DNA of 64,000 bases from an uncultured Christensenella sp. (GTDB lineage: Bacteria > Bacillota > Clostridia > Christensenellales > Borkfalkiaceae): assembly GCA_910586035.1 (NCBI GenBank), contig CAJUHT010000005.1, positions 18,818 through 82,817 on the forward strand, given 5' to 3'. The notes under the pieces are model-generated. The model was given only the letters and a program-made list of their open reading frames with translations. It had not been told where the DNA came from and did no database searches. Below are positions 23,741 to 45,732 of this stretch, one piece after another. The first letter of the stretch is position 1. Each line of letters starts with the position of its first letter. The position numbers and the translations under genes are program-made.

Positions 23741-23769
23741 TTGCATTATGCCAAGGGATATGATAATAT
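23741..23769 (+). promoter_or_regulatory. Extended -10 promoter of the GLUG-lipoprotein / protease / Opp unit
   Basis: TTGCAT (23741-23746), 17 nt, TG-a-TAATAT (23761-23769). Confidence 0.5.
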
Positions 23770-23885
23770 AGAAGAGAATGAAAAAATAGGGTTATAGTCC
23801 GCAAAAGCCCGTCTGACGACGGTTATGGACTATTACGGCGCTTAAAATACGTTAAAACTGCCAAAGGCAGTGCGGGGTATAAATT

Positions 23886-26800
23886 ATGAATAAATTCAAA
23901 AAAATCTTAATCGGTTTAATAACTGCGGCGGGCATATCCTGTCTGTGCGGGGCGGCTGCCTGCACGGGCGGGTCCGCGCCCAAGTTCTATGAGTTGAAGT
24001 TCGAGGGTAAAGGGCTTGACTACATTATGCTCGGCACGCTTGCGGAAACCGACGAAGATGGCAACCAGTTTATCAGCGGCGGTACGGTTAAAGACGGCGT
24101 GGAAGTGCGTTTCAGCATAACCCTTGCCGCCAACTCCACGGGCGCGCCCGTCATATCCGCAAACGGGGAAACGCTTACGCCCGACGAAAACAACGAGTAT
24201 TCGTTTATTATGAAAAGCGATACAGTCGTTTCTGTCAGCGGTCTGGGCAGTATTTACGATTTAAAGCTTTGCCGCACCGAACAGGTACCCGACGCCAACG
24301 GCAACAATTATGAGGAAGAGCGTTGGATAAGCTATCTCGACGAAAACGGCAACGGCTTCGGCTCGGACGTGCTTGTCGAGGACGTGGTTAAAGTGGAGAG
24401 CGGCACGCCCTTCAAATTCAAACTGCAAGTTAGCCCCTATTATACTCCCCAATACACGGTAAGTTGCGGCTTCGACGTTCTCGAACCTGACGCGAACGGC
24501 GTATACACTATAAACAATTTAACCCAGAACAGCGAAGTAAGGGTTACGGGACTCGAACAGGCGCCCTCATTCGTTACGGGGCGCAAGGATTGCGGAAGCG
24601 GCACGGCGAGCGACCCGTACCTTCTTTCCCAGCCTATCGATATGTTCTACTTCGCCGTTTTAATCAATTCGCCTACTTTAAGCTCATACTACGCTACGGC
24701 GCATTACAAGCTTGTCGAGGATATCGATATGCAGGGCGAGCATCTGTACGTAATCGGCGACGGCTCCAACGACGCAATGTTCTGCGGCACGTTCGACGGC
24801 AACAATAAGACTATAAGAAATTTCTACATTACCGACGAGGTTGTCGACCAGGAGAGCTACGAGGAAGCTTATCTTCCTTACGTAGGGCTTTTCGGACAGG
24901 CTGTGGCTACCGTTAACGCTCCCGTAGTAATCAAAAACCTCACGTTGGAGGACTACGTTGTAAAGGCGCACCCCGGCGCGGCGGGCGCGGGCGCATACGT
25001 CGGCTCGCTTGTCGGCTACGGCATAGGCGTGCAAATCACGGGTTGCAGGGCGGTCGGCGAAGTGGTGGTAACCAACGACGACAACCAAATTGTAAATATG
25101 GGCGGTCTTGTCGGCAGAATGCAGGCGGCTTACCGCGCCGATTCGAGGGCGACAATCACCTGGGACGCGTTCGTAACGGCAAGTTCCACCGACGTAGAGC
25201 TTTCGGGCAACGGCACTCCCCACTCGGCGGGCGGCATAGTCGGATATCTTTCGGCGGCTGACATAAGCGCGATTGCATACGTTTCCAACAGCTGTTCCTC
25301 GGGCAGAACCTCGGGCGCGATGCGCACGGGCGGCATAGTCGGCACTATGGGCAGATTTGCTTCCGTAAGCAACTGCTATTCCGTTTCGCAGGTCAGCTCA
25401 AATAACTCCATAAATATTCCCAACCTTACCGAGCAATTCAAGGGCTCGTATGCGGGCGGCATAGTCGGCTACGCGGAAGAGGACACCGTAATTGCGGGTT
25501 GTTACGCGGCAAACGCTTCGCTTACGGCGTACTGCGTGCGCAACGATGAAAGGTATAAAAAGACGGGCGATTTCGCCGCTTACTACGATAAGGCGGGCAC
25601 GTCCTCGATTGAATCCTCCGCCGTACTGCTCATAAACAACTCGCAGGCGGTGGAAAACCACCCCAACGAAGTTTTCCTTGGACTCGGCTGGCAACAGAAC
25701 GAGTGGAACTTCGACGGCAAACTTCCCAGACCCGTGGTATCCTCGGCGGAGCGCACGGTTAAGGTAACTGTCAAAGACGGCGCAAAAACGGTTGAAACGG
25801 TTACTAAAAATATCGTTGACGCGCGCCCTTTCTACACCTGGTTTGAAGACGGGGTACTTTCCGAATATATAACGGCTTCGGGCAAGCGTTCGGGCGGATA
25901 CTTCTTTGACGAAGCTCTTACGCAGAGGGTGCCCTACGGCTATATCTTAACCAATTCGGAAGTTACCTTATACGTCGGCTTTGCCGATTACGGCGAAGTT
26001 GAAGGCACTTACTATATCCGTCCCACCGAATACTCCAAGGGCGCGTATATCGAGCTGACGGCGGATGGAACGGCAAAACTGCGCAACGGCGGTATGTACT
26101 TCGAGTGCGTATACGCTTACGACGGAGAAAAAATCACCCTTTACAATACCAATCTCGTTTCCCTGCTTCACGATACCGAAGCGGTGGACGGAAGATATTT
26201 CAACCTTGTGGGAACAATCAATGACGGGCTGTTCGAAATAAACGGCATAGCTATGCTTTTGCAGGTGGACGGAGAAAACGCTTCCTATGTAAATACAAAA
26301 ATAGAGCTTGCCGCGTCCAAAGAAATCGAAGGCTTCGGCTACGGCGAGTACCGCGCGGCTAACGGTATGACGTATATGTTCGATAAGGACGGTACGGGCT
26401 GGTTTAAGACGGGAACGAGGACTACTGAGTTTACCTATAAACAGGCGGGCGAAAGCTGGGCTATCGCTCCCGCGGGCGGCGGTACCATTCCTATGACGGT
26501 AGTCGGCGGGCAGGTAACGGCAATAAGCGGCACGGCGGTTACGTTAAAGGACGGCTTTACAGGCGTTTGGAGCAAGTCCGCCAACTCACAGGTAACTTTC
26601 TCGTTCGACGGACTCGGCGGCGTTACCTACGTAAACGGCGGCGCTACCGTTACGGGCACGTATCAGGTAACCGACGGCGAGGCGGAAATTTCCGTTGACG
26701 GCAAAACGTTAAAGGCGGCGTTCTCCAACGGAACGCTCGTTATAGACGGCGAAGTTTATTACGTAAACGACGGCTTTACGGGCGAATGGTATATGAGCGC

Positions 26801-45457: not shown

Positions 45458-45695
45458 AAAGCCCGACGATTTGGATACCGAAACGACCTTTGCGGATATG
45501 AACGTAGAGGGGTTCAGGTGGTACGACCCGCAGGCAAAAAAGAATAACGGACGCAGACACAGGCAAAAGATGAGCCGCAAGGAGTATTGGTTGCTTGTTC
45601 GCGCGGCGTTCGCCGCATACGCCCCGGTGTTTTTGATTGTAATAGTGGTTTTTGCAATTATGGGGCTGATTGCCTGGCTGTGGGTAGGAATTTAA
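45441..45695 (+). CDS. Small membrane protein (84 aa), translationally overlapped with the OppF-like gene
   Basis: The ATG lies 17 nt inside the upstream gene. Basic/acidic N-terminal half (MSKKNKKPDDLDTETTFADMNVEGFRWYDPQAKKNNGRRHRQK), then a single TM helix, AAFAAYAPVFLIVIVVFAIMGLIAWLWV. It is followed directly by the operon terminator. No family recognised. Confidence 0.5.
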   Translation: MSKKNKKPDDLDTETTFADMNVEGFRWYDPQAKKNNGRRHRQKMSRKEYWLLVRAAFAAYAPVFLIVIVVFAIMGLIAWLWVGI

Positions 45696-45704
45696 ACGCT
45701 TTAA

Positions 45705-45732
45705 AAAGAGCTCTCGTACAAGAGAGCTCTTT
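45705..45732. terminator. Bidirectional terminator between the Opp unit and the convergent cysteine desulfidase family gene
   Basis: An 11-bp stem, AAAGAGCTCTC (45705-45715) / GAGAGCTCTTT (45722-45732), with a 6-nt loop. A/T tracts on both sides. Confidence 0.7.

Follow-up and report, generated by a model that had tools for sequence, protein, structure and literature searches.

In a 64,000-nucleotide (nt) stretch of DNA from an uncultured Christensenella sp. (contig CAJUHT010000005.1; the whole stretch is hereafter called the window), a block of nine + strand genes (23886-45695) encodes a 2515-amino-acid (aa) cell-envelope subtilase together with an oligopeptide-type importer. In our view, the block probably serves small-genome gut Clostridia as a protein-foraging module that is co-transcribed and evolutionarily conserved. 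It has transcription boundaries at both ends, is covered by contiguous RNA in vivo, encodes a protease with intact catalytic motifs, and represents a linkage of protease and transporter that is seen in two directions of search and has persisted through several rearrangements. In the proposed mechanism, the subtilase, held on the surface by a C-terminal transmembrane (TM) helix, would cut extracellular proteins into oligopeptides; a large lipid-anchored family-5 binding protein would catch the oligopeptides at the membrane; and an ABC importer of the OppBCDF type would bring them into the cell. The lipoprotein encoded immediately before the substrate-binding protein (the pre-SBP lipoprotein) and a small membrane protein, tm84, would serve as constant accessory parts of the transporter, while a GLUG-motif lipoprotein would be a lineage-specific accessory part.

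Layout and transcription of the nine-gene unit

The unit begins with the GLUG-motif lipoprotein (23886-28355; 1489 aa, with a DUF5640-like repeat; Pfam GLUG, E = 1e-07; lipobox in the translation), followed by the S8 cell-envelope subtilase (28436-35983), the pre-SBP lipoprotein (35976-37409; 477 aa), the SBP_bac_5 (family-5) substrate-binding lipoprotein (37436-40120; 894 aa; Pfam SBP_bac_5, E = 4.6e-28), an OppB-type permease (40140-41129; 329 aa), an OppC-type permease (41174-42316; 380 aa), an OppD-type ATPase (42319-43620; 433 aa), an OppF-type ATPase (43610-45457; 615 aa), and tm84 (45441-45695; 84 aa). This gene order and domain content, which an earlier note on this DNA had proposed, are borne out by Pfam and NCBIfam. 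The junctions listed in that note (80 nt at 28355/28436, an 8-nt overlap, gaps of 26, 19, 44 and 2 nt, and overlaps of 11 and 17 nt) all match the coordinates of the open reading frames (ORFs), and no overlap or gap exceeds 80 nt.

To follow transcription across the block, assembled contigs of eight mouse-gut metatranscriptome runs were aligned to the window, whose sequence is present in mouse-gut metagenomes as well as metatranscriptomes. Upstream contigs of three runs end at 23532, inside the intrinsic terminator of the preceding 1213-aa gene (23523-23547, + strand; 11-bp stem with 10 G-C pairs and a T-run, −28.1 kcal/mol), and two of these carry 44 further bases. RNA coverage is absent from ~23576 to 23762-23932, and new contigs start at 23762, 23797, 23826 and 23932 in four runs, two of them beginning with library adaptor sequence; these contig starts locate the 5′ end of the transcript approximately. 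Every junction of the unit is bridged by single contigs in one run or another. Specifically, the GLUG/S8 junction is crossed by a contig of run X29 (26569-30120), a second X29 contig (30114-42656) spans S8 through OppD, further bridging contigs come from X31 (27000-38448), X38 (35367-41199) and X30 (36680-43459), and contigs of X28, X29 and X31 reach from ~43100 to ~45700. RNA depth is fairly even inside the unit in each run (~6-55) and is down to 0-7 after 45676 in five runs; in X31, one contig stops at 45697 and the next one starts at 45765. The contig boundaries at ~23762-23932 and ~45697 recur between runs. Coverage gaps in intergenic regions and differences in depth between adjacent genes suggest that the signal is RNA and not contaminating DNA. 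The single transcription unit proposed earlier agrees with these data, in which transcription shows no break between the first and last genes and depth collapses after ~45676. Contigs of several independent runs also break inside the protease gene near 30110-30160; since many variant positions lie nearby, these breaks probably reflect strain variation rather than a transcript end.

Sequence signals at the two ends of the unit match these boundaries. The 5′ boundary is formed by the terminator at 23523-23547 and a promoter region on the + strand (23732-23767), which contains a perfect TATAAT (23732-23737) and a TTTGCA-16-GATAAT pair (23740-23767, 9/12 matches); the latter is the promoter-like pair that the earlier note had placed at 23741-23769. 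The 3′ boundary is formed by a hairpin between convergent genes (45705-45732), likely a bidirectional terminator, which the earlier note had also named and which is real by folding (−19.9 kcal/mol, z = −4.75; none of 200 shuffled sequences is as stable). Our terminator scan missed this hairpin because its T-tail is interrupted. The scans likewise agree with the claim that the unit holds no convincing internal terminator or new promoter. In particular, promoter-like pairs inside the unit are about as frequent as chance predicts (16 against 14.1 expected), the highest-scoring one lying at 41760-41787 (10/12) and another at 37237-37264, while terminator-like sites are fewer than chance (20 found, 27.9 expected, in a first scan of both strands), and the sole notable one on the + strand, at 38036-38053, is weak (7 pairs, tail ATTTATTGGT). 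The GC-rich stem without a U-tract that had been noticed in the 80-nt GLUG/S8 gap is present (28387-28418, + strand; 9-bp stem), with a stability that is ordinary for its composition (z = −1.0). An Rfam scan of 23400-46000 at E ≤ 1 gave no match, hence no known leader RNA or riboswitch, and the fold of the 5′ leader is unexceptional (z = −1.8). The CodY box (AATTTTCWGAAAATT) has seven matches in the window at ≤3 mismatches, none of them within 23500-23900.

We consider it unlikely that the 22 kb instead comprise two or three adjoining operons (GLUG; protease; transporter), each with its own promoter and sharing proximity only. Such a subdivision would fit run X38, in which a break at 28313-28359 separates two contigs (the first ending at 28312, the second starting at 28360) and depth is ~2-fold higher downstream, as well as run X35, in which the binding-protein gene is ~3.5 times deeper than the preceding lipoprotein gene. 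It would also fit the internal promoter-like pairs at 37237-37264 and 41760-41787 and the 15 related loci in which the protease follows the transporter (see below), so that the protease-to-transporter order is dispensable. The X38 break may mark a secondary start or a processing site, and the same junction is crossed unbroken in other runs. Single RNA contigs from several runs span all the junctions, no convincing internal terminator separates the genes, and the junctions 3′ of the protease are ≤44 nt or overlapping and therefore leave no room for a promoter outside coding sequence. The RNA contigs are short-read assemblies that carry no strand information and are compatible with additional internal promoters, but such extra starts would supplement read-through transcription rather than replace it.

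The protease and its linkage to the transporter

Linkage between protease and transporter was analysed in two directions. In the forward direction, species-representative genomes were scanned for the binding protein, which gave 533 confirmed stretches; the best 80 loci were kept and searched by tblastn with the window proteins. An orthologous S8 protease lies on the same strand in 62 of these 80 binding-protein loci, upstream in 47 and directly after the transporter in 15, and the catalytic, middle and leucine-rich-repeat (LRR) parts of the protease all align in order in the 62. Among the 18 loci without the protease, 14 are cut by contig ends, and one (L057) retains an LRR fragment at the locus edge. 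In the reverse direction, metagenome contigs were scanned with an alignment of the catalytic region, giving 79 loci with the window's own contig, OFFL01000039.1, left out. The transporter is linked to the protease in 56 of these, and in all 32 loci where both flanks are complete. Synteny of S8 protease and family-5 binding protein in relatives, which had been suggested as a check, is thus kept in both search directions.

The two proteins also vary in step with each other: their identities to the window copies are correlated across loci (r = 0.91, n = 57). A neighbour-joining tree built from the binding protein shows the protease-downstream order in at least four separate places, indicating that gene order changed repeatedly while linkage persisted. 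One metagenome-assembled genome (MAG), CANRFW01, holds two complete, diverged copies of the module (L030 and L039).

The protease is composed of a signal peptide, a propeptide region, an S8 domain with a PA insert, an Fn3_5 domain, a Big_2 domain, an LRR_5 region, a TM anchor and an acidic tail, in this order. The S8 catalytic domain (29042-30631, aa 203-732; Pfam Peptidase_S8, E = 2.8e-37) contains its motifs in subtilase order, with VLDTGLD (aa 210-216) for Asp, HGTHVAG (aa 288-294) for His and SGTSMACP (aa 666-673) for Ser, and with AASNDYS (aa 412-418) as the Asn motif. The PA domain is inserted in the S8 domain at 30053-30247 (aa 540-604), and the Fn3_5 domain (30773-31120, aa 780-895; PF06280, E = 1.3e-09) is typical of the C5a-peptidase/cell-envelope-proteinase subfamily. 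Further downstream, the Big_2 domain (32552-32680) precedes a BspA-type LRR_5 region with seven matched stretches (Pfam LRR_5, E = 6.9e-105), whose limits, 32915-34480, are approximate and come from a repeat-motif scan; this region is 25-50% identical in orthologues. Among solved structures, the protease is closest to C5a peptidase, SpyCEP and cell-envelope proteinase A (E = 8e-53 to 6e-47 over aa 199-915).

The architecture is maintained among the orthologues, the complete ones being mostly ~2400-2950 aa long. Of the 62, 55 retain the Asp, His and Ser motifs; six of the other seven ORFs are truncated by the edge of the locus, and the seventh (L022) is a complete ORF in which only the His pattern is missing. 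The C-terminal TM anchor of the window protease (35735-35824, aa 2434-2463) lies just before the acidic tail, and most complete orthologues end in a comparable hydrophobic segment, while LPXTG occurs in neither the window protease nor any of the 62 orthologues. Judged from these sequences, the protease would be held on the surface by a TM helix rather than by a sortase or S-layer-type anchor.

From its family and partners, we infer that the protease acts on nutritional proteins. A different role, in which it acts mainly on the host or on competitors (immune or mucosal proteins) or serves as an LRR-mediated adhesin, with peptide uptake as secondary salvage or merely co-regulated, appears quite improbable to us. 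This role would suit the nearest solved relatives, C5a peptidase and SpyCEP, the BspA-type LRR_5 and Big_2 domains, which are typical of adhesins, a weak NCBIfam match to the LRR adhesin HupY/LrrG, and the gut habitat. Yet the linkage to the importer outlasted at least four rearrangements and is seen in both search directions, which is hard to explain unless the importer uses the products of the protease. Host-directed and nutritional roles are, moreover, compatible with each other. The LRR and Ig domains might, as the earlier note suggested, direct the protease to a host substrate.

The binding protein, the importer and the accessory proteins

A family-5 binding protein, two BPD_transp_1 permeases and two oligo_HPY ATPases make up a complete set for an Opp/Dpp-type importer according to Pfam and NCBIfam. 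Of 8000 candidates scored, more than 1000 are related to the binding protein at E ≤ 1e-5. Nearly all of the best 120 measure 819-979 aa, and those with names belong to Clostridia MAGs, several of them Candidatus Coproplasma; Cys24 is invariant in 49 homologues. By profile search, the closest characterised relative is AppA (1xoc), with E = 1.7e-21 as compared with 1.1e-08 for the next match. The AlphaFold2 model (pLDDT 87.6, pTM 0.85) matches 171 Protein Data Bank (PDB) chains at E ≤ 0.001, which are family-5 binding proteins, and 1xoc is again the top match in Foldseek (E = 4.2e-19; TM-score 0.75 normalised to the target). At roughly aa 180-400, the model further shows an insertion of ~220 aa, mostly helical, which the solved relatives (470-610 aa) lack. 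The best NCBIfam family is Opp4A (79 bits, cut-off 650).

The structure of AppA, 1xoc, was crystallised with a nonapeptide. Since AppA is the best match, Opp4A the best family and a protease the constant partner, peptides are most likely the ligand of the modelled binding protein. The earlier note had named clustering with sugar- or nickel-binding members as an outcome that would count against its reading; the nearest characterised relative is instead an oligopeptide binder, AppA, by both profile and fold, with the fold scores of NikA and NikZ lying only slightly lower, so that peptide specificity is likely. An importer of nickel or metallophores, oligosaccharides or muropeptides, linked to the protease through shared regulation or envelope biogenesis, is in our judgement very unlikely. 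NikA, NikZ, CntA and chitin- and pectin-binding members are found among the similarly scoring Foldseek matches, the ~220-aa helical insertion is present, and the binding protein scores under curated family cut-offs, all of which would be consistent with a non-peptide ligand. The wide margin by which AppA leads the profile search, the Opp4A assignment and the constant protease partner point to peptides instead.

The remaining transporter components have their top NCBIfam scores against Opp/Dpp families. Both permeases match BPD_transp_1; for the OppB-type permease the best NCBIfam families are Opp4B and Opp3B, both under the curated cut-off, while the OppC-type permease has an OppC_N domain and scores 312 bits against Opp4C. 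Both ATPases match ABC_tran and oligo_HPY, and OppF reaches 412.6 bits against the NF008453 cut-off of 408. OppD is extended by a basic segment at its N terminus and contains an insertion, which spreads the 137-position ABC_tran profile over aa 74-287. OppF has a core (aa 1-345) followed by a 270-aa low-complexity tail rich in K, E, A and T (44645-45454); RNA contigs show that strains differ in the length of this tail through indels (134 and 88 nt absent, 30 nt extra). A Cx6Cx2Cx3C motif occurs in the oligo_HPY region of OppD (aa 389-402, 43483-43524) and OppF (aa 304-317, 44519-44560) and could bind an iron-sulfur cluster. Matches of MMSYN1_0167 and MMSYN1_0168 models to OppD and OppF had prompted a comparison with the Opp systems of Mollicutes, which have a large OppA and inserted ATPases. 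We dropped this link because E. coli-type models reach equal or higher scores and because the binding protein matched only Opp4A and TIGR04028 in NCBIfam.

Two accessory proteins recur with the transporter. An ORF of 360-720 aa ends just 5′ of the binding-protein gene in 73 of the 74 loci with enough upstream sequence, including loci where the protease sits elsewhere or is absent. In the window, this is the pre-SBP lipoprotein, which matches no Pfam or NCBIfam family, has just 74 relatives in a large protein collection, and is modelled by AlphaFold2 as an all-beta, multi-domain protein (pLDDT 91.5) with no fold match in the PDB at E ≤ 0.001. It contains one Listeria-Bacteroides-repeat-like motif (GYDLIGWY) and a beta-solenoid-like C-terminal part with GNGHTISN. 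A relationship to the GLUG protein was considered and rejected, as BLASTP shows no real similarity. The second protein, tm84, is a tail-anchored membrane protein with one C-terminal TM segment; it matches no known family and is conserved 3′ of oppF in 44 loci, with the motifs DMN-VEG..WY, RKE...AF..Y.P and YLWL. The GLUG lipoprotein, for which no sequence relative was found in the PDB, is linked in closer relatives only, its homologue lying 5′ of S8 in four loci (L001, L002, L005, L006) and after tm84 in eight (L007, L008, L010, L019, L025, L028, L031, L032). We presume that the binding protein prefers peptides and that the accessory proteins assist the module.

Several loci carry fusions between neighbouring components. 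In L007, L008, L032 and L064, the protease ORF runs without a stop into the pre-SBP gene, giving a single ORF of ~2900 aa. The fusion in L007 (8690-8810), which we read in detail, has two adjacent TM segments; the arrangement predicted for it, from outside through a TM segment, a short cytoplasmic loop and a second TM segment to the outside again, would be a workable topology, and the fusion also holds an internal start codon with a Shine-Dalgarno-like GGGAG. In L074 (16101-18146), a tm84 homologue follows the end of the OppF tail as an in-frame fusion. Together with the invariant adjacency of the genes, the large insertions and the OppF tail, the protease-lipoprotein fusions (four loci) and the OppF-tm84 fusion (one locus) hint that the parts could form one surface machine, a monoderm counterpart of the Sus-like 'utilisomes' of Bacteroidota but for proteins. 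On this tentative proposal, which we regard as possible but doubtful, the protease, the pre-SBP lipoprotein and the binding protein would touch, products would pass straight to the importer, and tm84 would tie the OppF tail to the membrane.

We attach hardly any probability to a signalling function, in which the protease would mature an exported precursor (a pheromone or bacteriocin) and the Opp system would re-import the product, so that the module would make and sense a peptide signal. It is generally known that other Firmicutes import signalling peptides by Opp and that S8 proteases mature lantibiotics. The unit, in contrast, contains no gene for a precursor peptide, modification enzyme, exporter or receptor-regulator, and its protease has the 2500-aa multi-domain architecture of envelope proteinases and not that of the LanP type.

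Several observations weigh against a protein-foraging module transcribed as one unit. First, besides the break in X38 and the depth step in X35, RNA depth tends to climb from the GLUG gene to the binding-protein gene. Second, L016, L017 and L065 are the only loci with full flanks and no trace of the protease; L016 and L017, from a group labelled mostly Candidatus Scatosoma, keep the transporter with no protease within 10 kb. Third, the nearest characterised relatives of the protease cut host immune factors and not food proteins. Fourth, the Foldseek scores of CtaP, lactococcal OppA, NikZ and NikA are close behind that of 1xoc, the sequence match to AppA is limited to the C-terminal half of the binding protein (~residues 544-792), and the NCBIfam matches of the binding protein, the permeases and OppD are all under curated cut-offs. 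Finally, the unit holds no intracellular peptidase gene, no recognisable regulator and no CodY box at its promoter, and the functions proposed for its components are read from family membership.

Lineage, neighbourhood and comparison with known systems

The nearest named relatives are Candidatus Coproplasma MAGs. This genus has been assigned to the family Borkfalkiaceae of the Christensenellales, and its genomes measure 1.4-1.7 Mb (PMC8035907); 22 kb is therefore a large investment for such a cell. Upstream of the unit lies a Bat-like cluster (9048-17069) encoding a MoxR AAA ATPase, a DUF58 protein, a BatA/VWA protein, a VWA protein and a 474-aa protein, followed by genes for large surface proteins of 904 and 1213 aa (ORFs up to 23497). 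The BatA/VWA, VWA and 474-aa genes are also found directly upstream of the binding-protein module in the distant loci L047, L052 and L066, so the conserved neighbourhood may exceed 22 kb. Downstream, and convergent to the unit, lies a gene of the serine-dehydratase-alpha family, SDH_alpha (45773-47053, − strand), which recurs near the module in eight loci (L001, L003, L005, L006, L016, L019, L031, L057) and may be a linked gene of amino-acid catabolism. The window also encodes a 774-aa protein with a pectate lyase domain and CBM77 (4142-6466), the organism thus also having a pectin-degrading enzyme, and two large proteins with AhpC/TSA-redoxin domains (48093-50240 and 50765-53635, − strand), of unusual architecture and one of them joined to 4Fe-4S binding domains.

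Small-genome Clostridia of the Christensenellales type commonly inhabit the guts of humans, mice, birds and ruminants, and hardly any has been cultured. An expressed, conserved protease-import operon suggests a food source for many such bacteria, namely dietary or host protein, and with it a route to their cultivation; the module can also be used directly as a genomic marker of the potential for proteolysis in gut metagenomes. The protease points to a family of very large surface proteases that may act on host mucins, immunoglobulins or chemokines. Furthermore, three parts are added to a well-studied transporter class, namely the binding protein of 900 aa, its constant lipoprotein partner and the tail-anchored mini-protein.

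The closest known parallel is the proteolytic system of lactic acid bacteria (LAB), which comprises a cell-envelope proteinase (PrtP, PrtS or PrtB), Opp and intracellular peptidases. The two systems use the same protease subfamily (S8 with a PA insert and Fn3-type domains, ~2000 aa or more, surface-held) and the same importer class (a family-5 lipoprotein, two permeases and two oligo_HPY ATPases). In LAB, opp lies at a different locus from the proteinase genes (prtP/prtM and relatives), whereas the lineage of the window has both parts in one expressed block that is conserved over many species. The window protease differs from the LAB proteinases in its TM anchor, which replaces an LPXTG or S-layer-type anchor, and in its large BspA-type LRR region; the unit has no PrtM-like maturase and no CodY box at its promoter, and it adds the constant pre-SBP lipoprotein and tm84. 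The logic of the LAB system, from protein to oligopeptide to uptake (PMC6199461), is presumably the same here.

The catalytic, PA and Fn3 region of the window protease has its best solved relatives in C5a peptidase (ScpA/ScpB) and SpyCEP, which are LPXTG-anchored virulence proteases with narrow host substrates and whose genes are not known to lie with an Opp importer. The window protease is ~1000 aa longer than the longest solved chain of ScpA, ScpB or SpyCEP and adds the LRR_5 region and the TM anchor. The binding protein, at 894 aa, likewise exceeds its solved relatives in the fold search (~470-610 aa); compared with B. subtilis AppA, it is ~370 residues longer, including the helical insertion, and 14% identical in the structural alignment.

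For S. aureus, one report describes a secreted protease and one specific Opp system, Opp3, as functionally coupled for growth on host proteins (PMC6495380). The coupling described there is one of functional dependence, whereas that in the window is genetic and transcriptional and involves a surface-anchored S8 protease. To our knowledge, the protease and transporter genes do not form one operon in either LAB or S. aureus. The literature that we searched yielded no description of a cluster of S8 protease and Opp genes, which does not prove that none exists. Set beside these systems, what is new here is a stable operonic coupling of protease and importer across many species of an uncultured gut lineage, together with the TM anchor, the LRR-bearing 2500-aa protease, the 900-aa binding protein and the two constant accessory proteins.

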